The notes: generated by a model from the letters alone, not told the origin. 45,398 nucleotides of DNA from Candidatus Woesearchaeota archaeon (GCA_964391715.1 CAYMMZ010000001.1:1-45398); one strand, 5' to 3'; shown: positions 17,092 to 45,398, numbered from the stretch's first letter. Program-made: numbers and translations.

Positions 17092-17799
17092 CTAAACATC
17101 TTTTAAATCAGATCTTCTATGATAATCTTGACTCTCAATAACTCCCAGGGCTAAACTTCTTCCACTCCCTTGAAGTTCTTCAGATCTACTCTCCTGAAAC
17201 TCCAAGAATGAATCATAAATCTCCGTCCCCACCAACATTCTTTCAATATCTTTACTAAAATTAAAATTTGGTTTAATTGGTGGGATAAACATTTTCCTAA
17301 CAACCGTAGGAGATCTATTTTCAGCTTTAGGCAAAACTAATTCTCCCCTACAAGAAGAATGAACACCTACCGCTAATTTTTCCAAAACTCCATTAATTCC
17401 CTCAAAGGTTTCTCTTTCTTCAAAGTCCCGAGGATTAACATAGGGCAAAACATTAAACATTGTTAAAGAAAAATCTCCTTCCTGATAAAGCCTCGGGGAA
17501 ACAACAAACACATCGTATTTGGGTCCCTCAGCTCCTGAAGTCATATGAGCTAAAGAACCAAAAGTATTAATCCCATACACATTCAATCTTTTCAATTCAT
17601 CTGTAACAGGACCTCCAGAATAAAAGCCCCTATCTAAAGTAATCTCCTCAGGCTTTAACCTTTGCACAAGCCCCTTAAATAACTGCCCCAAGCCCCGAAT
17701 ATCCTTATTTGCAAATTCCTCTCCCAGGGATTCAAGCATATCTCCCCTCAATCCATCCACTGAAACAGTCTTAGATTCCTCTAGTAACATGTGTAACAT
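17092..17799 (-). CDS. hypothetical protein (ORFan) between rps7 and fusA
   Basis: 235-aa ORF with a TTTTTATATA box about 30 nt upstream on the minus strand. No motif recognised. Confidence 0.45.
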   Translation of the reverse strand: MLHMLLEESKTVSVDGLRGDMLESLGEEFANKDIRGLGQLFKGLVQRLKPEEITLDRGFYSGGPVTDELKRLNVYGINTFGSLAHMTSGAEGPKYDVFVVSPRLYQEGDFSLTMFNVLPYVNPRDFEERETFEGINGVLEKLAVGVHSSCRGELVLPKAENRSPTVVRKMFIPPIKPNFNFSKDIERMLVGTEIYDSFLEFQESRSEELQGSGRSLALGVIESQDYHRRSDLKDV

Positions 17800-19922: not shown

Positions 19923-22900
19923 TTAACCTTTCTTTTTTTCCTTTGGTTTTTCGGCCAATGAACCGGTAACTCTAACCAAAAGCCCTGGAAGTCCAGTTCC
20001 AACAGGCACAGGTTGATTTAAGATTATATTCTCAATTACAGAAGCTAACTTATCTTTCTTCCCAGTCTTAGTAGCTTGAACAAAGTGTTTATCAGGAGTC
20101 TCAAAACTTGCCCTCGCTAAAATAGAACTTTTGTCAGAGATAATACCCATTCTCGTAATTCCCTTAACTGCACCAGAGCTAGTCATAGTGTCTGCAATAA
20201 GCATTGAGTGCTTAATATCTACATTAAGACCTTGAGAAACAATAACTTTCTGAATTTCATTAATAATAACTCGTCTTGCAACTTCTATTCCCAAAACATT
20301 TGAAACTTCATGAATATCATTGGTAACAGTTTTGTCTGCATCAACTCCTTTAAATGCTAATAGATCTTTCAAGTTAGACCCAGCAGTCAAAATTACATAA
20401 TCTTTACCCCTCTTAACAATCAAAACTTGTGAAATCTTTTTAATTCCTGTCAATATAACTTCTTTTAATTTTTCTTTAGTCTTATAAATCTCTTTAAAAT
20501 CTTCATTAGCCATATCTAAAATCATTCCATCACTTAACTTCTTAACTGCAAATCCTTTATCTTTCAAAACTTCCACTACTTTTTCAAGGGTGATATGTGC
20601 ACTACGAAGAGCTTTTGAATCAATACCAACCTTAATTTTCTTTGAACCAAAATCAATAGCAATCTCCGTTACAATTTCCTTTAACTTAACTTCCTTTATC
20701 TTCTCCGCAATTAACTTTGCTTTTGATTCATTATTGTGATTCTTATCTAAATAAATCTCCATAGCTGGAGTTTTTGGAAGTTTTCTAGCATCCAAAATTT
20801 CTATAATTCTCGGAAGTCCTTGGGTAACTTGCACTTCTGCAACACCTGCAGCGTGGAAAACATTCAAGACCATCTGTGTAGAAGATTCTCCAAAAGATTG
20901 AGCAGTAACAACTCCTATAGCTTCTCCAGGAGAAACTAATTGATTTTTATGAGCTTCTGAAATATCAATTCCATCAAGACCATATTTAAACTGAATAATA
21001 TTATTAGAAGCATCTCTTACAGTCTTATCATAAGCCATAACTAAATCTTGTAGAGCATTAGCCAATCTTCTATACAAATAACCAGATTTTGGAGTCCTAA
21101 GGGCTGTATCCATCAGTCCATCCCTACCAGTCATAGAACCAAAGAAAAATTCATCTGGTCTAAGCCCCTCAATAAAAGAACTATAGATAAATCCTCCAGC
21201 TCGAGGACCCAAATCTCCTTTCTTGAAAGAAGATAAAGTTCTTCCAGTGTATCCAAAATCAATTCTCCGACCATTCAATGCCTGTTGACCAACAGAACAA
21301 GCAATCTGGGTAATATTCAATAAACTCCCTCCAGCCCCACTACTAATCATTTTATTCGCCAAATTCTCCTTAGGAAACCCTTTCTTAACAACATCTCCAA
21401 TTTCTGTTCGAGTCTCATTCAAAACTTGCAACACCTTAATCTCTCGAGTCTCTTCAGCAGTCTTACCCGGTAAAAGTTCCATATTCTTATTATAATAACT
21501 CTCAATTACTTCCTGAGTTTTAATCTCTGCAGAATCAATAATCTTTTTGGTCTTTTCTTTAACTTCTACGGGAACATCTAAATCTCCAATAGACAATGTA
21601 AATCCAGTTCTTGATAAAAATGTAGTTCCCAAAGAAAATACTCGTCCAAGCAAATTCATAGTCTCACCTCTCCCAATCTCTTTATCTGCAATTCTCAAAA
21701 CTTCTCCCTTCTCACTCTTAAAACCTTTATAATCAATATTCTTATCTGAAATTTTCTTAGGAACAATCTTTGAAAAAACGTCCCCTCCAGAATTTGTCTT
21801 ATTAAACCCTGAAAAATCCACTCCAGATTCGTGCAATAATTGTGCAGAATCTTCTTTTGTAAGTTCTCCTTCATTCAACATAAAGTTTCCGCTAACTGCA
21901 TCCTTAACACAACCCATTAGATTCATATTATTCTTTGGGGAAAATAAATTTGAATTAACATCTAAAAGTACCTCTGCCTCAGCCCTCGCCTCTTCAGTCT
22001 GTGGTGCATGAATATTCATCTCATCTCCATCAAAATCTGCATTGTAAGGGTTACAAACAGCGGGGTGAACCCTAAAGGTTTTTCCAGGAAGAACTTTCAC
22101 AAAATGTGCCATTAAAGAGGCTCTATGTAATGAAGGGTGTCGATTGAAAAGCACAACATCTCCATCAACTAAATGTCTCTCAACAATATACCCTGGTTCA
22201 ATTTCTTCTACTAAATCCTCTCTCAGTTCTTCAGTAATCCTCTTCCTCTTCCCGTCAGGTCTCAAAATATAATTTGCTGCAGGATATTCTTCAGATTTAA
22301 TTAATTCCTTCATCCGATTCATATTAGTACTCGTAACCCTCTCCGCAACAGTAAGAATTTTTGCAACTCTTGAAGGAATTCCAACTTCATTCAATTTCAA
22401 ATTTGGATCTGGAGAAATAACTGTTCGAGCCGAGAAATTAACCCTCTTACCAGCCAAGTTCTTTCTAATCCTTCCCTCTTTTCCTTTAATTCTTTCAGTA
22501 ATTGTTTTTAATGGCTGACCACTCCTATGTCTCGCTGGAGGAATTTTTGCAATAGAGTTATCAAAAAATGTAGTAATATGGTATTGCAATAAATCCCATA
22601 AATCTTCAATAATCACTTCAGGTGCACCTGCATTCAAATTCTCCCAAAGTCTCTGATTAGATCGAATAATATCTGACAACTTATGTGTTAAATCATCTTC
22701 AGACCTCTCACCAGATTCTAAAGTAATTGAAGGTCTAACTGTAACTGAAGGGACTAACATAGAGGTCAAAATGCTCCACTCAGGTCTTAAAGTATTCGCA
22801 TTAATCCCAAGAATCTTCAAATCTTCATCAGTTATTTTCACAAGCCTCTCTCTAATCTCTGAAGGAAATAATCTTCTTCTACCACTTCTAAAGGTTGTTG

Positions 22901-23339
22901 GCTTCTCTAACTTAACTTTTTCCTGAATAATACTACAGTGAGGACATTTCTTTCCATCCTTAGCTTTCTTAATTCTATCAATCAAAGGTTTCTCTAAATC
23001 TTTATCTTCTTTAATCAAAACTTTTCCACAAGCCTCACAAGTAGACCTTAGAACTAAATCAATAATAGGGAGATACTTTATGTGAATCACAGGTCTTGCC
23101 AATTCAATCAATCCTGGATGGCCCAAACATTCCTTCAATCTCCCTCCACAAGTCCTACATCTAACACCTGGGTCAATTGCTCCAAGTCTCAAATCCATTA
23201 ACCCTCCATCAACAGGATACCCATCAACATCATAAAGCTCTGGAGTTACAATCTTAGCAACAGAAAGCTTCTTTATCTGCTCAGGACTAAGTAAATGAAA
23301 ACTCATTCCGCTGATTTGTTTCTTTACTGGTCTATTCAT
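19923..23339 (-). CDS. rpoA: DNA-directed RNA polymerase largest subunit, A' and A'' parts in one uninterrupted ORF
   Basis: N-terminal Zn motifs CRTCGG..C..H. Catalytic YNADFDGDEMN. Bridge-helix region GRDGLMDTALRTPKSGYLYRRL. This runs without a stop into the A''-type trigger-loop region SPGEAIGVVTAQSFGESSTQMVLNVFHAAG. 1138 aa. Confidence 0.95.
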   Translation of the reverse strand: MNRPVKKQISGMSFHLLSPEQIKKLSVAKIVTPELYDVDGYPVDGGLMDLRLGAIDPGVRCRTCGGRLKECLGHPGLIELARPVIHIKYLPIIDLVLRSTCEACGKVLIKEDKDLEKPLIDRIKKAKDGKKCPHCSIIQEKVKLEKPTTFRSGRRRLFPSEIRERLVKITDEDLKILGINANTLRPEWSILTSMLVPSVTVRPSITLESGERSEDDLTHKLSDIIRSNQRLWENLNAGAPEVIIEDLWDLLQYHITTFFDNSIAKIPPARHRSGQPLKTITERIKGKEGRIRKNLAGKRVNFSARTVISPDPNLKLNEVGIPSRVAKILTVAERVTSTNMNRMKELIKSEEYPAANYILRPDGKRKRITEELREDLVEEIEPGYIVERHLVDGDVVLFNRHPSLHRASLMAHFVKVLPGKTFRVHPAVCNPYNADFDGDEMNIHAPQTEEARAEAEVLLDVNSNLFSPKNNMNLMGCVKDAVSGNFMLNEGELTKEDSAQLLHESGVDFSGFNKTNSGGDVFSKIVPKKISDKNIDYKGFKSEKGEVLRIADKEIGRGETMNLLGRVFSLGTTFLSRTGFTLSIGDLDVPVEVKEKTKKIIDSAEIKTQEVIESYYNKNMELLPGKTAEETREIKVLQVLNETRTEIGDVVKKGFPKENLANKMISSGAGGSLLNITQIACSVGQQALNGRRIDFGYTGRTLSSFKKGDLGPRAGGFIYSSFIEGLRPDEFFFGSMTGRDGLMDTALRTPKSGYLYRRLANALQDLVMAYDKTVRDASNNIIQFKYGLDGIDISEAHKNQLVSPGEAIGVVTAQSFGESSTQMVLNVFHAAGVAEVQVTQGLPRIIEILDARKLPKTPAMEIYLDKNHNNESKAKLIAEKIKEVKLKEIVTEIAIDFGSKKIKVGIDSKALRSAHITLEKVVEVLKDKGFAVKKLSDGMILDMANEDFKEIYKTKEKLKEVILTGIKKISQVLIVKRGKDYVILTAGSNLKDLLAFKGVDADKTVTNDIHEVSNVLGIEVARRVIINEIQKVIVSQGLNVDIKHSMLIADTMTSSGAVKGITRMGIISDKSSILARASFETPDKHFVQATKTGKKDKLASVIENIILNQPVPVGTGLPGLLVRVTGSLAEKPKEKKKG

Positions 23340-38833: not shown

Positions 38834-38841
38834 TTTATATA
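38834..38841 (+). promoter_or_regulatory. TATA box TTTATATA, 21 nt before the ATG at 38863 (leaderless-type spacing)
   Basis: Read directly. The same box and the same spacing occur before the next gene (41714-41721 to ATG 41743). Confidence 0.5.
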
Positions 38842-38862: not shown

Positions 38863-41691
38863 ATGAGAAAAGAGGACGTTTTCAAAAAATTGGGGATAAT
38901 CGCAATACTCCTTTCAACAATAGGATTATTCTTTTTGACACTCAACACTGAAGAAGGATTTTTTAAAAATTTATGGGAAAATTTTGCAGGGGAAAGTCAA
39001 GATATGGGAGAAAGTTATAGTGGGGCAGGAACTAATGAAGACACCAATAAAAACTTAGAAGAAGATAAATCCTCAAACCAAGACGATGGTTCCAATTCTG
39101 GAGGTGGAGATAACTCAAGCGGAGGCGGTTCCGGAGGAGGTGGCTCTGGAGGCGGAGGAGGAGGAGGCGGAGGAGGTGGCGGCGGAAGCCCGCCCCCTGA
39201 AATTTGTAACGATGGGATTGATAATGACTTAGACAATAAAGTAGATTGCTCCGACCCAGATTGTTCAAGTGATGATTCGTGTAACTTAGATTCTGAATGT
39301 AACGATGGAATTGACAACGACAACGATGGATGGACAGATTTAGATGACCCAGGATGTATAGATTCAAACGACAATGACGAGACAAATGCCGCAACATCAT
39401 TCGAATGTTCTGATGGAATAGATAATGAAGAATACAATAAAGATGGCCTAATTGATGGTTTCGACCCTACCTGCATATTATGGACAGACACAACCGAAAC
39501 CTCTATTTGTCAAGACGGGATAGACAATGATGGTGACCTTCTATGTGACCTTGCTACAAGCACATGTATCGATTCAAGCACTCCAGGAGATTCTGGATGT
39601 ACGGACCCTAACGATGGAAGCGAAGGAAATACTGAAATTTGTAATAATGATATAGATGATGATGGAGATGGGTTCTCAGATTGTGAAGATTTTGATTGTG
39701 ACAATCAAATAAGCAATGGAGGAAAATGCGAATACCAAACCGAACTTTCCTGCACAGACAACTTTGATAACGATGCAGATAATTTAATTGATTGCTCAGA
39801 CCAAGATTGTAATGGAAAACCTGGAAACTCAAATGGAGATTCGTGTGAATATCCACAAGAACTTAGTTGTGGAGATGGTTTCGACAACGACAGAGACTTA
39901 AAAATTGATTGTGCAGATTCAGACTGTGAGCTGTTCCCTGGATGTTCTCCCGAAAATGAATGTTCAGATGGTATAGACAATGATGGGAATGGACTAACTG
40001 ATTGTGCGGACCCTGAATGTGATGGACTACTCGGAGATAACCAAGGAAATAGATGTGAATATGGAATTGAGTTAACTTGTATAGATGCTTTTGACAACAA
40101 TGCAAATGGTTTAGTTGATTGTAATGACTTAAGTTGTAATAGTGACCCTGGTTGTCAAACAAGTGAAGATGAAATCTGTAATGATGGAATTGATAATGAT
40201 AACAATGGGTTTACAGATTGTCAAGACAATGCTTGTATAGGACAGCAAGGACCAAATGGAGGAACTTGTGAATTACCTGAAGCTAGTTGTTCAGACCTCT
40301 ATGACAATGATGGAGATGGGGCAACAGATTGCGCAGACATAAACTGTGTAAATGACCCTTCTTGTAGCTCAGAAGAAGGATTCGACATGAAGGTAATTCA
40401 TATAACTCCTACAACAGGATATGTGCAAGATATCAATGGGATAGATATTTACGGCTCTTCAGAAACTCTTGCACAATGGCCCTTAGCATGGGCAATCAAA
40501 AATGCAAATGATATAAATGGCAGAAGAATTGACCTCTACGGAACTTCGGGAAAATTGACATTTGAAGGAACTCCTGCAAATAATTTCATGATAGATTCTA
40601 TGGACTCTTCAGCAAACAATCCAATAATTATCACGGGGAAAAATGGAGCAACAATCGATGCCCTCGGAGCCTCAGACACAATCTCTGTATTATCTGAAAA
40701 TGGACCTTCTCATACTTTCAATTACATTATCTGGAAGGATTTAACAATTATTCCAGGATACAGGGCAGCAGTCCACATTGGAGCCTTAACAGATACCTTA
40801 TGGGAGGGAAACCCAGGATATAGCGGATGGGAATTTGACAATGTAGTAATGGATGGGCTCTGGAGTCACAAAGAAAATTCAGGACCAGTATCTAAATGGG
40901 CAATGCAACTATTCGCAACAAAAGACTTTGTATATAAGAACGGAATAGTTAGAAACATAGAGCAAGAGCACGCAATCTACATGCACAATCCTGCAGGACC
41001 AACCTTAGTTGACAATAATCAATTCTATCAGCTCGGAAGGACAGGGGTTCAAGTAACAGCAAGAGAAAATGAATATGGTTATACTAATCTCCCTGCAAAC
41101 CCTTGGCCAATAACTATCACCAATAATATTATGGCAGACACAGGACTACAAGAGGGAGATTTTTTTGCAGGACAAACAATAACAATTGTCGGAAGAAATA
41201 CGGGAACAATCACAGTAACAGGAAACACTGTAAGTTATTGTGAGGATTTATACACTCAAGGTTTGTGTGACGCAGTCCAACAAAGAATAGATGCAAAATT
41301 CGGTCCCGGAATGAGAGCCTATGGCTCTGGAGCAACAGTGACATGGACAACCCCAAAGGAAAATTATGGAATTAGTGGACATTTAATTTATGCAAACAAT
41401 AACATAATCTATGGTTCTAATTATAATGGCGAAGCCGGTAGAAATCCTCCAGTGAGCATATCTGCAATGACTACGGCAGAAATCTATAACAACCTAATCC
41501 AAACAGGAGCAAACAAAGATGCCTTAATCATAGGAGAAGGAGACCAAGCTCATCCAATACCTTTAAATTATTGTGCAACAAATAATATAATCAACAACGG
41601 CGGGGTTATCAAGGTTGGTGGTTTTGGAAGTGATAAAATTAGGACCCAGCCAATCCAATTTGGAAACGCAGTTTGCCCTCCTCAAGCTTAA
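38863..41691 (+). CDS. giant membrane-anchored surface protein: Gly/Ser/Asp linker, 11 Cys/Asp-rich metal-binding-type repeats, C-terminal right-handed beta-helix domain
   Basis: Start at MRKEDVF (the ORF-track start at 38752 is TTG and overlaps rfcS). Transmembrane helix LGIIAILLSTIGLFFLTL. Poly-G tract. Repeats of the type C.DGIDND.DG..DC.D..C from 39204 to 40370. The tail carries N-rich PbH1-like rungs (TITNNIMADTG, VTGNTVSY, YANNNIIYG, IYNNLIQTG, TNNIINNGG). Confidence 0.8.
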   Translation: MRKEDVFKKLGIIAILLSTIGLFFLTLNTEEGFFKNLWENFAGESQDMGESYSGAGTNEDTNKNLEEDKSSNQDDGSNSGGGDNSSGGGSGGGGSGGGGGGGGGGGGGSPPPEICNDGIDNDLDNKVDCSDPDCSSDDSCNLDSECNDGIDNDNDGWTDLDDPGCIDSNDNDETNAATSFECSDGIDNEEYNKDGLIDGFDPTCILWTDTTETSICQDGIDNDGDLLCDLATSTCIDSSTPGDSGCTDPNDGSEGNTEICNNDIDDDGDGFSDCEDFDCDNQISNGGKCEYQTELSCTDNFDNDADNLIDCSDQDCNGKPGNSNGDSCEYPQELSCGDGFDNDRDLKIDCADSDCELFPGCSPENECSDGIDNDGNGLTDCADPECDGLLGDNQGNRCEYGIELTCIDAFDNNANGLVDCNDLSCNSDPGCQTSEDEICNDGIDNDNNGFTDCQDNACIGQQGPNGGTCELPEASCSDLYDNDGDGATDCADINCVNDPSCSSEEGFDMKVIHITPTTGYVQDINGIDIYGSSETLAQWPLAWAIKNANDINGRRIDLYGTSGKLTFEGTPANNFMIDSMDSSANNPIIITGKNGATIDALGASDTISVLSENGPSHTFNYIIWKDLTIIPGYRAAVHIGALTDTLWEGNPGYSGWEFDNVVMDGLWSHKENSGPVSKWAMQLFATKDFVYKNGIVRNIEQEHAIYMHNPAGPTLVDNNQFYQLGRTGVQVTARENEYGYTNLPANPWPITITNNIMADTGLQEGDFFAGQTITIVGRNTGTITVTGNTVSYCEDLYTQGLCDAVQQRIDAKFGPGMRAYGSGATVTWTTPKENYGISGHLIYANNNIIYGSNYNGEAGRNPPVSISAMTTAEIYNNLIQTGANKDALIIGEGDQAHPIPLNYCATNNIINNGGVIKVGGFGSDKIRTQPIQFGNAVCPPQA

Positions 41692-41713
41692 AATCTCTTA
41701 TTTAATCAGTAGA

Positions 41714-41721
41714 TTTATATA
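41714..41721 (+). promoter_or_regulatory. TATA box TTTATATA, 21 nt before the ATG at 41743
   Basis: Read directly; identical arrangement to 38834-38841. Confidence 0.5.
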
Positions 41722-41742
41722 ATTCGAAACCTAAAACCTTTA

Positions 41743-44700
41743 ATGGTAAGAGAGGTTGTCTTGAGAAGAATTGTCGTCTCAATAGCACTAATTGTTTCTA
41801 TTGGATTATTTTTTCTAGGATTACAAATAGCAGATAGTCTGATAACAGACTCTGTAGGAGGAGATGATATTTCTGGAGATTCTGGAGATTCTGGAATAGA
41901 TGATGGGGGCAACAATGGAGACGATGGAGATGATAATTCAGGCTCAGGGGATGATGGCTCTGGCTCAGGAGGCGGTGGCTCAGGAGGCGGAGGCGGTGGC
42001 TCAGGAGGCGGAGGTGGCTCTGATGATGGAGGCTCCGGCAGTTCCAATGAATGTGAAGACGGCACGGACAATGATGGTGATGGATGGATTGATTTAGAAG
42101 ACCCTGGATGTGCAGATGGAAATGATGATGACGAATTAAACTCAGACAAAGGCTATACCTGTTCAAACAATATAGACGATGATGGTGATGGACTAATAGA
42201 TGGCTACGACCCAGATTGTACTTCCTGGACTGACGAAGAAGATGGAAGCAGTAGCACACCTGAATGTAGTGACGGAATAGATAATGACAATGACGGCTCA
42301 ATAGATTATGACCCTAATAATCCCTTAGGAGATTTGGGTTGTAGTGATTCTAATGACAATACCGAAAATGGGGAAATTTCAACACCCTTAACTCAATTTT
42401 CAGATTCAAGCTCATACAATTGGCCATTAGTAAGCAGAGTGAGTAATGACAAACAATTCCTCTATCGTTCAGATGGAAGAAATTTACAAATGTTAGACTT
42501 AAATTTATTAAATAGTCAAACCCCTCCTTCAATAGACCAAATAGTTCTAAAGGAAGTTAAAATTTACTCAAGCACCACAGACATATTGGAAATAGGGGAA
42601 GACCTATTCATCTGCGGAGGAGATTTGGGATTGCACACTATAGACTCAAATCTTGTATCTCCTGTAAGCAGGATGGACATTCACCAAAGAGAACTTTGGT
42701 GTACAAGCCTTGCAACTGCAAAACTAGGAACTCAAGATGTCCTCCTAGCTCTTTGGTCAGGTTTTGATGACAATGAATTAAAAGTTTATGATCCTGTAAC
42801 TAAAAACACCTTAGCTTCAATTCCCCTAAGCAAATCTACAGGAGCATTAGTCCAAGGAATAGGTTGGGATGTTGAGACTAGGGGCTCTAACGCATATGTC
42901 GCCCTTGGAACTTCTGGAGTAATCCGTGTAAATTGGAAAGACGCAGTAAATGGGAACCCAACAAATTTAATCCAAGGTCCATTAGCAGTTACAAATCCCA
43001 ACTATAATAGAAGTGTTAAAGAATTGTTGGATGTAAAAGATTTATCGATAATCGGCGGAACACTATACGCGGCTGCAAATGCCCAAGGGTTAGTTGAAAT
43101 TGACTTAGCGATATCATGGGATCCAAGAATGACTACAAAAACCTACTTCCACGAAAATTTCAAAATTAACAAATATCCTACAAAAGTAGAATCCTTAATT
43201 GACTCTTCAGGGAACACTCTTATTGCAGTAAAAACTGGAGATGAGCCAAACTGGCAAGAATGGGGACCTTACATGATGTATGGAGACATAACTTGGAAAT
43301 CTACACCTATTGGAAGAGACTTAAATATTCTAGACACTTCCGCCCATGATTATGAAGAAGGTAAAATCGGAGGAGTAGTTCAGAACAAACTAATCTTATT
43401 TGAAAAGCAATCTGGAGGAACCACCCTTCAAGAAGTAGCTTCCGGTCCCCACAATGGAAAAATTCCTGGGATAAAGACAATGGACTTCTATCAAATGGGA
43501 AATGATTTTATGGTATACAACGAGATTCCCTTTATCTATAAATTTAGTAGAGACTCTTCAAATAATCTACAAGATGCTGTTATGGTTGATGGTGATCAAT
43601 TCTTACAAGGACATGGATTCTATATCCAAGGAGGAATGAGTGTAGTAAACCCTTCTGTTTTGATTTCTGGCTCTGACGGTGCTCCTCACGCTTTCCAAAA
43701 AATAAGTGGAACAAGTCCTTCATTTTCAGAAGTTGTTGGGACATACACAGTTCCTCATTGGATGGGACTCTGGGACGGAGCAAGGTGGGTAACTTCTCTT
43801 GGAACAGAATTCGCAGTCCAAGGTGCTGGAGGGATATATTGGTATATCAGAGAAATTGATTGGAGTCCATCAGTTCCTGGAATGAAAGGATGGAAAATCC
43901 CAGTAGACTTAAATCAAGGAGCAGACCAATTTGGATATACTCCTCGTTCCTATAGTAACGCAGAATTCGACCCAGATAGTGATTTAGTCTTCATGGTAAG
44001 GTCAGAATCAAGAGAAGGAATTGTAATCACAGATAGGACTTCTATCTATAATTCTGCTCAAAACACTGCATTAGATGGAGAGTTCGTACCTCAAATCCTT
44101 GCAAAAGCAGTTCTTCATGAAGAATCTCCTTCCACAAAACCTCCAGGATACAGCAAAACAGAAACACTTTGGGCATATAATCCTAAGTTTTTCAGAAACA
44201 CTGAAGGGAACAAGATAGTCGCAGTAGCAGCATCATATTATGTAGATAGCACCTCTCCAGATTATCAAAAATCTAAAGTAGTCTTCTACGAATTACCTGA
44301 ACCATTCGACCCAAGCGTTCCATTAAAAAGTGCAGTAATGATAGGATCTTCAGGACCTTCAAGTGCAGTAGCAGTAGAAATTTTTGATTTCGAGAATTCT
44401 CAAATGGCCATCGTCGCAGGGGGCGCAGGAGAAGTATCCCTCCATAATATAACCAATCTGCAAGGAGTTTTAGATGGGACATTAGCAAGAACCCTACTAA
44501 AGCCCCTCTCTTCATGGACTGTTAGGAATCAACCACTAACAGATAGAAAACCTTTAGTAACTGATGCCTTAGTAAGAGACGAAATAATAAATGGGGTCCA
44601 AAAAACCAGAATCTATGTAGCTGCCAATAGTGAAGGAGTGTACATACTCGAAATAGATAAGGACTCTAATGGAAATCTCAACCTCATAGAAATCGGAAGG

Positions 44701-44808
44701 ATCAACACAATATTCCAGCCAGTAAGTATCTCTCTTGAAAGGGTAAGCAATCAGGACGTATTAGTGGTCTATGACCATGGTGGTGGAATAATTGCCTTCA
44801 CTCAATAA
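41743..44808 (+). CDS. giant membrane-anchored surface protein: Gly/Asp linker, 3 Cys/Asp-rich repeats, long LVIVD-like beta-propeller region
   Basis: Transmembrane helix IVVSIALIVSIGLFFLGL. GGGSGGGGGGSGGGGGS tract. CEDGTDNDGDGWIDLEDPGC, CSNNIDDDGDGLIDGYDPDC and CSDGIDNDNDGSIDYD. Recurrent strands such as AYVALGTSGVIRVN, LYAAANAQGLVEIDL, IYVAANSEGVYILEID and VLVVYDHGGGIIAF. Confidence 0.8.
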   Translation: MVREVVLRRIVVSIALIVSIGLFFLGLQIADSLITDSVGGDDISGDSGDSGIDDGGNNGDDGDDNSGSGDDGSGSGGGGSGGGGGGSGGGGGSDDGGSGSSNECEDGTDNDGDGWIDLEDPGCADGNDDDELNSDKGYTCSNNIDDDGDGLIDGYDPDCTSWTDEEDGSSSTPECSDGIDNDNDGSIDYDPNNPLGDLGCSDSNDNTENGEISTPLTQFSDSSSYNWPLVSRVSNDKQFLYRSDGRNLQMLDLNLLNSQTPPSIDQIVLKEVKIYSSTTDILEIGEDLFICGGDLGLHTIDSNLVSPVSRMDIHQRELWCTSLATAKLGTQDVLLALWSGFDDNELKVYDPVTKNTLASIPLSKSTGALVQGIGWDVETRGSNAYVALGTSGVIRVNWKDAVNGNPTNLIQGPLAVTNPNYNRSVKELLDVKDLSIIGGTLYAAANAQGLVEIDLAISWDPRMTTKTYFHENFKINKYPTKVESLIDSSGNTLIAVKTGDEPNWQEWGPYMMYGDITWKSTPIGRDLNILDTSAHDYEEGKIGGVVQNKLILFEKQSGGTTLQEVASGPHNGKIPGIKTMDFYQMGNDFMVYNEIPFIYKFSRDSSNNLQDAVMVDGDQFLQGHGFYIQGGMSVVNPSVLISGSDGAPHAFQKISGTSPSFSEVVGTYTVPHWMGLWDGARWVTSLGTEFAVQGAGGIYWYIREIDWSPSVPGMKGWKIPVDLNQGADQFGYTPRSYSNAEFDPDSDLVFMVRSESREGIVITDRTSIYNSAQNTALDGEFVPQILAKAVLHEESPSTKPPGYSKTETLWAYNPKFFRNTEGNKIVAVAASYYVDSTSPDYQKSKVVFYELPEPFDPSVPLKSAVMIGSSGPSSAVAVEIFDFENSQMAIVAGGAGEVSLHNITNLQGVLDGTLARTLLKPLSSWTVRNQPLTDRKPLVTDALVRDEIINGVQKTRIYVAANSEGVYILEIDKDSNGNLNLIEIGRINTIFQPVSISLERVSNQDVLVVYDHGGGIIAFTQ

Positions 44809-44830: not shown

Positions 44831-44938
44831 CTATCTTCTCTTAAGCTTTCTCTTTCGCTTTTCTTTCTTAAGTCTCTTTCGTTGCCATTTCCAACGCATT
44901 TGACCTTTCTTCTTCCATCTTCTAGAACTTCTCTTCAT
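44831..44938 (-). CDS. rpl41e: 50S ribosomal protein L41e (eL41)
   Basis: 35-aa MKRSSRRWKKKGQMRWKWQRKRLKKEKRKRKLKRR matches the archaeal L41e pattern KRSSRRWKKKG.MRWKW..KRL (recalled from memory). Too short for the ORF track. Confidence 0.8.
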   Translation of the reverse strand: MKRSSRRWKKKGQMRWKWQRKRLKKEKRKRKLKRR

Positions 44939-45301: not shown

Positions 45302-45363
45302 TAGCCCTGCCAGGATTTGATCACCAGATCACCTACTGGGTCAAGCCTTGGTTCGAATCTCCA
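45302..45363 (-). other. second tRNA 3' trailer module with the same 24-nt insert as at tRNA-Lys
   Basis: 16-nt direct repeat 45302-45317 = 45364-45379 (the tRNA's 3' end). The 24-mer at 45318-45341 is identical to 26950-26973. GATTCGAACC (minus sense) is complementary to this tRNA's own T arm. Confidence 0.7.
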
Positions 45364-45398
45364 TAGCCCTGCCAGGATTCGAACCTGGGTCGCGAGGT
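45364..45398 (-). tRNA. tRNA, 3' part only (truncated by the window end); identity undetermined
   Basis: In minus sense: ...ACCTC GCGAC CCAGG-TTCGAAT-CCTGG CAGGGCT A. This shows a T arm and the 3' acceptor strand. An implied A1:U72 pair with A73 is initiator-like, but the anticodon lies outside the window. Confidence 0.7.

Follow-up and report, generated by a model that had tools for sequence, protein, structure and literature searches.

Two predicted surface proteins with a common modular plan and different heads in a DPANN archaeon

Genes, promoters and the common N-terminal plan

The window analysed here, a stretch of 45,398 nucleotides from a Candidatus Woesearchaeota archaeon (GCA_964391715.1 CAYMMZ010000001.1:1-45398), carries two long head-to-tail open reading frames (ORFs) on the + strand, G1 and G2, which were defined from the ORF list and by translation. 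G1 (38863..41691) starts with ATG and encodes a protein of 942 aa, about 100 kDa, with a pI of 4.05. G2 (41743..44808) also starts with ATG and encodes 1021 aa, about 110 kDa, with a pI of 4.2. A protein identical to G1 is present on the public contigs ENA ERZ27249630 k141_787132 and JGI Ga0209992_10002115 (JGI 3300024344). The ENA contig is 67 kb long. The first-pass annotation had described the pair as giant surface proteins built from an N-terminal anchor, an acidic Gly-rich linker, a Cys/Asp stalk and differing heads. Hydropathy, composition and repeat models confirmed this modular plan; the proteins, at about 100-110 kDa, are large rather than giant.

Both genes had also been said to start 21 nt after an identical box, and this is correct. 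By direct reading of the sequence, the TATA box TTTATATA lies at 38834..38841 (+) for G1 and at 41714..41721 (+) for G2, exactly 21 nt before the ATG in each case, and the second box lies 23 nt past the G1 stop. The box is not a mark of the pair, however. In at least six further window genes a TATA-like box ends 21-23 nt ahead of the start codon, and the gene at 17092-17799 carries the same octamer at a distance identical to that of G1 and G2. Because other window genes carry boxes at a like distance, the geometry is that of the genome's generic promoter for leaderless transcripts, and pair-specific co-regulation through identical boxes was rejected. For G1 the geometry implies a putative leaderless or near-leaderless mRNA. 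The only conclusion drawn from a box at each of the two genes is that each has its own promoter.

G1 and G2 contain a single hydrophobic segment each, at aa 10-27 and with Arg/Lys ahead of it, and elsewhere no 19-aa window has a Kyte-Doolittle mean above 1.6. In G1 the segment is LGIIAILLSTIGLFFLTL (38890..38943, +), which follows MRKEDVFKK and is a predicted signal anchor with the N-terminus inside. In G2 hydropathy located it as IVVSIALIVSIGLFFLGL (41770..41823, +) after MVREVVLRR. The core IGLFFL is common to both segments, and a homologue of the G2 head, P0003, has LGLFFL. Hydropathy and the positive-inside rule together predict N-in/C-out membrane anchoring of G1 and G2.

An acidic, Gly/Ser-rich linker, in G1 predicted to be flexible, follows the anchor. 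The G1 linker (38947..39201, +; aa 29-113) has 34 % Gly, 17.6 % Asp+Glu and 3.5 % Lys+Arg, and includes a poly-Gly run and PPP. The G2 linker (41827..42048, +; aa 29-102) has 42 % Gly, 20 % Ser, 22 % Asp+Glu and no Lys or Arg. Parts of the linker DNA (39121-39186 and 41929-42014) are in-frame simple tandem repeats with periods of 12, 15 and 21 nt. The periods of 12 and 15 nt belong to G1, and G2 has a perfect 21-nt in-frame tandem repeat of 2.2 copies at 41968-42014. Linker lengths could vary by slippage. The similarity between the N-terminal parts of G1 and G2 is modest, with an E-value of 1.7e-6 after composition correction compared with 1.3e-18 uncorrected.

The stalk of G1 (39202..40365, +; aa 114-501) consists of 11 acidic Cys repeats with 40 Cys and 27.6 % Asp+Glu. 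The stalk of G2 (42049..42342, +; aa 103-200) has three acidic two-Cys repeats of the same sub-type as repeats 2-3 of G1. The counts of 11 and 3 given in the first-pass annotation were reproduced by a regular expression and by the NCBIfam model NF033662 (acid_disulf_rpt, 'acidic double-disulfide repeat'), which covers aa 115-501 of G1 (nt 39205-40365) in 11 stretches and aa 104-200 of G2 in three. The scores of 239.4 bits for G1 and 50.2 bits for G2 both pass the curated cutoff of 41 bits. The repeats had been described as being of the type C.DGIDND.DG..DC.D..C. They are real, but the four-Cys form is present in only 8 of the 14, all of them in G1; repeats 2-3 of G1 and every repeat of G2 contain only two Cys. 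The first Cys is conserved in 14/14 repeats and the third in 12/14, and long-loop and short units alternate through repeats 5-11 of G1. At the DNA level the repeat copies are just 60-75 % identical, and an 87-nt stretch of the G2 stalk is 75 % identical to 39294-39380 in G1. The array is thus old and not newly expanded, and a recent duplication or repeat expansion was rejected on the same grounds.

The best match of the G1 stalk in the PDB was the C-rich domain of teneurin-4 (7PLP, E 0.0016), with ENECSDGIDNDGNGLTDCADPEC aligned to 23 residues. In the 1.5 Å structure of this domain three Ca2+ are bound through E835, D840, D843, N844, D845, D847, D851, D854 and D856, sites I and II have thrombospondin type-3-like coordination, and the teneurin ectodomain is stabilised by Ca2+ (PMC9058538). 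The equivalents of D840, D843, N844, D845, D847, D851 and D854 show conservation in 10-14 of 14 window repeats and are occupied by D, N or E in 13-14 of 14; those of E835 and D856 are less conserved (7-8 of 14). G1 repeat 4 is irregular and lacks the equivalent of Cys852. On the basis of the conserved ligand positions, Ca2+ binding like that of thrombospondin type-3 repeats and the teneurin C-rich domain is predicted for the stalk repeats. The resemblance to thrombospondin type-3 repeats proposed earlier therefore holds, as seven of the nine teneurin ligand positions persist at the frequency given above (10-14 of 14), although Pfam TSP_3 itself gave no match. Membership in the MopE type was not upheld: a Pfam scan of G1 and G2 returned no family at E<=1, MopE PF11617 and TSP_3 included.

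At least 1464 proteins match the stalk repeat at E<=1e-5, and the top match is a Pacearchaeota hypothetical protein. Many of the others come from Myxococcota (Polyangia, Sandaracinaceae), Fibrobacteres and Gracilibacteria, where the repeat is fused to proprotein-convertase P, S8/trypsin protease, lamin-tail, SLH, dockerin and F5/8-C domains. Judged by these fusions, the stalk repeat behaves as a general extracellular spacer module and not as a symbiont speciality.

The beta-helix and propeller heads

The G1 head (40366..41688, +; aa 502-942) is assigned by a family profile to right-handed parallel beta-helix domains and belongs to an unannotated family. Searches with G1 alone detected little. 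Pfam gave no beta-helix (PF13229) or Chondroitinas_B match at E<=1, a phmmer search of the PDB with the single G1 head and the single G2 head as queries gave no match for either, and a word-indexed search found one homologue, P0001, which is 71 % identical. A full HMMER scan of 1.84 billion representatives recovered 101 relatives at E<=1e-3. Of these, the nearer relatives, at 34-44 % identity, are stand-alone proteins of 430-530 aa with signal-peptide-like N-terminal sequences, one of them from a metagenome-assembled genome (MAG) of Mariniblastus, and they start at a D[ML]xV motif, as the G1 head does. Among 42 relatives, Beta_helix PF13229 was found in six and Chondroitinas_B in one (E 0.0017).

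A profile of 88 family sequences matched alginate lyases of polysaccharide lyase (PL) family 6, BcAlyPL6 (7dmk, 3e-11) and AlyGC (5gkd, 1.5e-10). Further solved beta-helices were matched by the same profile: alginate lyase 6kfn (2e-6), the glycoside hydrolase (GH) 110 structure 7jwf (7e-6), Pel9A of PL9 (1ru4, 4e-4) and chondroitinase B (1dbg, 3e-3). The lyase families matched include PL31. The earlier description of this head as a right-handed beta-helix is thus borne out at the profile level. The PL6 catalytic Lys/Arg and Ca2+ site could not be aligned to the G1 head, as the profile alignments end before the catalytic turns; the head is therefore placed in the beta-helix superfamily and not in PL6. 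An AlphaFold2 (AF2) model from a two-sequence alignment had a predicted local distance difference test (pLDDT) value of 38. In a Foldseek search with this model the top-listed matches were all beta-solenoids, nearly all of them right-handed beta-helices, and none was significant (E>=0.09), so the search is a weak consistency check only.

A conserved polar block lies at 40894..41139 (+) and comprises K678-W679, E702-H703-x-x-Y706, G725-R726, Q730, R734 and D759. The motif EHAIYMHN pointed out in the first-pass annotation is located here, at aa 702-709 of G1. In head numbering, K177-W178, E201-H202, Y205, G224-R225, Q229 and R233 are near-invariant in the family, and D258 is so in the 42-sequence alignment only. 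G1 retains all conserved polar positions of both the 42- and the 88-sequence alignments. K678, E702 and R726 are spaced by 24 residues, about one turn of a beta-helix, so that K, E and R should stack on one face. Residues stacked along one face are the usual layout of the substrate groove in beta-helix lyases and hydrolases. The block is thus a candidate substrate groove, active or binding, and with its clear set of conserved motifs the G1-head family could be a new carbohydrate-active family.

The G2 head (42343..44805, +; aa 201-1021) is an all-beta region of about 12-14 four-stranded blades, modelled as tandem beta-propellers, and belongs to a rare family. A search of 5.8 billion clustered proteins yielded just five homologues. 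Two of them, P0002 (45 % identical) and P0003 (57 % identical), are low-GC, DPANN-like and membrane-anchored. The other three have 864-874 aa, at least two of them with signal-peptide-like N-termini, and the one contig examined has 68 % GC. A pattern scan of GTDB genomes found no relative of the G2 head, and scans of viral contigs found none of either head. The AF2 model of the G2 head, from six sequences, had a pLDDT of 71 and a predicted template modelling score (pTM) of 0.58, with about 50 strands in groups of four. Foldseek returned 923 PDB matches at E<=1e-3, and those listed were all tandem or multi-propeller proteins (Utp/WDR proteins, Trm734, DDB1 and GH74) with a probability of 1.0 and TM-scores of 0.2-0.38, the top matches reaching 0.3-0.38. 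In this medium-confidence model the propeller fold class is clear, but the specific relative is not. The head had been described as an LVIVD-like propeller of about 800 aa. The propeller part of that description stood. LVIVD PF08309 did not match G2 at E<=10, and the best score in a relative (P0005, 18.9 bits) was under the gathering cutoff of 20.2, so that 'LVIVD-like' denotes motif resemblance and not membership.

One of the homologues, P0006, is encoded on a bacterial contig with 68 % GC (L007 4905-9458), where its gene starts 10 nt after a gene for a 648-aa sulfatase. From this adjacency, the propeller family may be connected with sulfated glycans.

The nature of the two heads bears on whether the proteins serve nutrition. 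A cell-tethered depolymerase, with the propeller as an accessory binding or cleaving part, might supply a fermentative DPANN cell, without any host, with acidic or sulfated polysaccharides harvested from the environment in dissolved or particulate form. The nearest structural relatives of the G1-head family are alginate, chondroitin and pectate lyases; the nearest sequence relatives outside DPANN are stand-alone proteins with signal-peptide-like N-termini, of which the only named one is from the Mariniblastus MAG; and the sulfatase neighbour of P0006 and the presence of GH74 among the Foldseek matches of the G2 head point in the same direction. However, the flanks of G1 and G2 contain no sugar transporter or downstream catabolic genes, the neighbours being RFC, MGMT, tRNA-Gln and EndA. 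The catalytic residues could not be aligned, and tethering on a long stalk is unnecessary for such a role. We regard nutrient scavenging as possible but rather unlikely.

A variable genomic slot and shuffled modules

The window includes genes for archaeal EF-1alpha, EF-2, RNA polymerase and RFC. Its RpoA is 82 % identical to that of Woesearchaeota/Nanoarchaeota MAGs and 59-65 % identical to that of Pacearchaeota MAGs. Judged from these sequences, the organism is a Woese/Pacearchaeota-type DPANN archaeon, which agrees with the small-genome archaeon of the first-pass annotation.

Followed past the window end, the gene order is EndA, tRNA-Gln, MGMT, a small basic ORF, G2, G1, RFC small subunit (RFCS) and RFC large subunit (RFCL). 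We compared 80 metagenomic loci with an RFC small subunit 75-92 % identical to this one. The RFCS-RFCL synteny was kept wherever the contigs extended that far, but no module of G1 or G2 was detected in any of the 80 loci by tblastn at E<=1e-3. The interval from EndA to RFCS was 384-1923 bp in nine relatives, compared with 6843 bp here (L172 9169-16534, on the same contig and reaching beyond window position 45398; L090, L091, L108 and others were compared), and in L108 MGMT lies 1.4 kb from RFCS. The slot contains nothing, a 230-aa gene, MGMT with a HAD-like gene, or MGMT with G2 and G1. Because the 80 loci lack the modules and the EndA-RFCS distances differ, the G1/G2 pair is accessory and lineage-specific and occupies a variable slot. 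Synteny of the pair with RFC in relatives was rejected, as none of the loci carries the modules.

This distribution bears on a structural role, in which G1 and G2 would be non-enzymatic components of the envelope or an S-layer canopy, with the Ca2+ stalk and the propeller building or spacing the wall. It was among archaeal surface proteins that LVIVD repeats were first described, and weak LVIVD-like motifs occur within the G2-head family. High acidity and predicted Ca2+ sites are likewise typical of envelope proteins. Close relatives would be expected to retain a core envelope protein, however, and the pair is absent from 80/80 loci. There are also just a handful of head homologues, and the polar row conserved in the beta-helix suggests a ligand site. 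A structural role is thus very improbable.

The same results bear on the proposal of the first-pass annotation that the pair forms a host-attachment or envelope-breaching apparatus, in which the long-stalked beta-helix would depolymerise host surface polysaccharide and the short-stalked propeller would grip the host envelope. The surface architecture and the DPANN placement of the organism fit this proposal, and DPANN includes obligate ectosymbionts. A head 71 % identical to that of G1 is present on a second low-GC contig of the same sample, and strain specificity of the pair is what is expected of host-range determinants. In Nanoarchaeota the fastest-varying class consists of N-terminally anchored hypothetical surface proteins, which are proposed host binders (PMC6142677), and large multi-domain adhesion proteins have been proposed as interaction factors of Nanohaloarchaeota (PMC6642349). 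On the other hand, the modules are all found in bacteria too, and their named sources include free-living Myxococcota, in which the repeat is abundant, and the Planctomycetota MAG Mariniblastus. The head relatives are mostly secreted proteins and, where their origin can be judged, bacterial. The pair is absent from each of the 80 related loci, the slot measures only 0.4-1.9 kb in nine relatives, and Pfam detected no similarity to SPEARE-type domains. A dedicated host apparatus is therefore doubtful, and the pair is not a conserved apparatus. Surface display with a glycan-directed head is compatible with host interaction without demonstrating it, and by analogy the literature on variable DPANN surface proteins makes such interaction plausible.

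The homologues of the heads indicate how the pair may have been assembled. In P0001 (L001 3950-6154), the only close homologue of the G1 head, the head stands behind a transmembrane (TM) segment, a Glu-rich linker and a non-Cys domain, and there are no Cys repeats. The P0001 contig has 33 % GC and is separate from the window contig, and both are in ENA sample ERZ27249630. This location and the different N-terminal region are compatible with head exchange between co-occurring lineages. In P0002 the G2 head stands behind a Cys repeat of the TIGR02232 (myxo) type, and in P0003 it is carried on a stalk close to that of G2 with an anchor close to that of G1. The relatives of the heads are mostly signal-peptide proteins and, where their origin can be judged, bacterial (the Mariniblastus MAG and the 68 % GC contig).

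A surface-protein island was seen on a low-GC related contig (L004 4205-15054). It encodes an 811-aa protein with TM, DUF4215 and FG-GAP propeller parts, P0002 and a 640-aa protein, with a 744-aa NosD-type Beta_helix protein on the other strand. The N-terminal 197 aa of the 640-aa protein are 68 % identical to those of its neighbour P0002, and its head is different. Three of these genes were compared for promoters, those of the 811-aa protein, P0002 and the 640-aa protein, and in each a TTTATAA box precedes the ATG by about 20-24 nt. The recurrence of the same chassis with different heads in tandem points to cassette-like domain exchange rather than to a fixed two-part machine.

A bolder extension is that Woese/Pacearchaeota-type DPANN archaea keep a 'chassis' of anchor, Gly tether and Ca2+-rigidified Cys-repeat rod and swap heads between co-occurring lineages. 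The G1 head would then found an undescribed polysaccharide-lyase-like family, defined by the residues K-W, E-H-x-x-Y-x-H, G-R-x-x-x-Q-x-x-x-R and D, that opens the acidic envelope glycan of a partner, and repeat number would set the working distance. This idea was suggested by the tandem paralogues with common N-termini and different heads in the window and on L004, and we think it improbable.

Several further observations concern the neighbourhood of the pair. The tRNA-Gln gene (contig 45364-45436, -) is cut by the window end, and its 3'-terminal 16 nt are exactly duplicated 62 nt away beside the MGMT start (45302-45317 and 45364-45379), in the manner of an att-site remnant. No third copy of these 16 nt that would bound an island was found near G1, and an 18-nt repeat at the start and stop of G2 (83 % identical) was treated as chance. 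Between G2 and MGMT lies an uncalled, highly basic 35-aa ORF on the - strand (44834-44938), MKRSSRRWKKKGQMRWKWQRKRLKKEKRKRKLKRR, with a TATA-like box upstream. Pfam gave no match to it, and we take it to resemble ribosomal protein eL41. In three of the compared loci (L090 5856-7181, L091 5034-6356 and L108 4303-5619) a conserved, membrane-anchored acidic protein of about 440 aa with 28 Cys is encoded a few kb from RFC and adjoins another TM-anchored protein of 270-925 aa. The 28-Cys protein had no NCBIfam match and no similarity to G1 or G2. Elsewhere in the window (19923-23339, -), the A' and A'' parts of RNA polymerase subunit A are fused in one protein of 1138 aa, which contains Rpb1 domains 1-5. 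In most archaea the A' and A'' parts are split. The fused subunit had tblastn matches over residues ~1-1136 in MAGs of Woese/Pacearchaeota and other DPANN.

Proposed function and comparison with known systems

Our analysis favours the reading that G1 and G2 are accessory, domain-shuffled, surface-displayed proteins that probably target glycans, either of a host envelope or of an environmental polymer. The mechanism that appears most likely, and that we consider reasonably probable, is surface display of glycan-directed heads. G1 and G2 would be separately transcribed leaderless genes, each encoding a surface protein on one common plan. The N-terminal signal anchor would hold the protein in the membrane, and a flexible Gly/Ser/Asp tether of about 80 residues would come next. 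The acidic Cys-repeat rod, predicted to bind Ca2+ and pinned by one or two disulfides per repeat, would carry the head away from the membrane, to differing distances with 11 repeats in G1 and three in G2. The G1 head, a beta-helix related to polysaccharide lyases and hydrolases with a row of K, E/H, R and D on successive turns, would bind an extracellular acidic glycan and probably cleave it. The tandem beta-propeller of G2 would serve as a ligand- or glycan-binding platform. The pair would represent a lineage-specific insertion between the MGMT/EndA and RFC genes, built by shuffling widespread extracellular modules.

Several points weigh against parts of this reading. Transcription may read through from G1 into G2 across the 23-nt gap, and the N-terminal segment may be a cleaved signal peptide, which would lead to secretion instead of anchoring. 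Only 23 residues align with teneurin (E 0.0016), and each repeat has two or four Cys where the teneurin domain has six. For the G1 head, the lyase alignments span the N-terminal cap and the first turns (for GH110, the C-terminal turns) and leave the catalytic turns outside, and the AF2 model, at a pLDDT of 38, is unusable. Conservation is the only ground for proposing an enzymatic activity, and the G1 head may instead bind without catalysing a reaction.

The prevailing view is that DPANN archaea depend on other cells, yet a fold or ligand has been predicted for very few of their surface proteins. The pair offers three concrete modules that can be expressed: a stalk repeat with Ca2+-ligand positions that correspond to those in a solved structure, a beta-helix head with candidate active-site residues and a rare tandem-propeller head. 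It also illustrates clearly the shuffling of heads and stalks within a variable slot of the genome and is a reasonable target for the biochemistry of the DPANN cell surface. Much of this is already known: the stalk repeat belongs to a curated family, secreted proteins often carry beta-helix or propeller heads on spacer repeats, and variability of surface proteins is an established theme in DPANN archaea. The specific combination and the two head families without annotation are new. A literature search found no papers on DPANN with LVIVD or on Woesearchaeota with pectate lyase. Existing knowledge is unchanged, because each module belongs to a widespread extracellular class.

Both stalks score above the cutoff of NF033662, in 11 and three stretches. 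They depart from this model at G1 repeat 4, which is irregular, and at repeats 2-3 of G1 and 1-3 of G2, where only two of the four Cys are present. NF033662 is a repeat model without an assigned function, and no paper on it was found in the literature search. MopE PF11617 is similar in having Asp-rich, Cys-bounded 'DGxDNDxDG' motifs in secreted proteins, and two stalk homologues carry PF11617, but the family does not match G1 or G2 at E<=1.

The window repeats have in common with teneurin-4 (7PLP) and thrombospondin type-3 repeats the motif C-x-D-x-x-D-N-D-G-D-G-x-x-D-C-x-D-x-x-C. The teneurin domain is single, with six Cys (disulfides 1-3, 2-5 and 4-6) and three Ca2+, whereas the window repeats form tandem arrays with two or four Cys and predicted Ca2+ binding. 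As a separate observation, a prokaryotic NF033662 repeat (39202-40365 and 42049-42342) here aligns with a metazoan C-rich Ca2+-binding domain with most ligand positions conserved. A bacterial ancestry has been proposed for teneurins, and given this proposal the C-rich domain may be of prokaryotic origin too. This similarity is a small evolutionary side-note.

The G2 head resembles LVIVD PF08309 proteins in its predicted propeller fold and in blade motifs such as LYAAANAQGLVEIDL and AYVALGTSGVIRVNW; it differs from them in that G2 has no match and the best relative falls below the cutoff. The pair as a whole resembles the variable surface proteins of other DPANN archaea, namely the N-terminal-TM 'hypothetical external' surface proteins of Nanoarchaeota (PMC6142677) and the SPEARE proteins of Nanohaloarchaeota, which contain serine protease, laminin-G/adhesion and restriction-endonuclease domains (PMC6642349). 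All are membrane-anchored, mostly extracellular, lineage-variable and multi-domain (PMC6142677, PMC6642349). Domains of the protease, laminin-G and restriction-endonuclease types are missing from G1 and G2, which are also five to eight times smaller than the SPEARE proteins and have no detectable sequence relationship to them. The G1-head family, finally, has in common with the PL6 lyases (chondroitinase B, AlyGC and BcAlyPL6), PL9 Pel9A, PL31 and GH110 the right-handed parallel beta-helix, with profile E-values from 3e-11 to 3e-3, and it is set apart from PL6 by a motif set of its own, KW.., EHxxYxH, GRxxxQxxxR and D.

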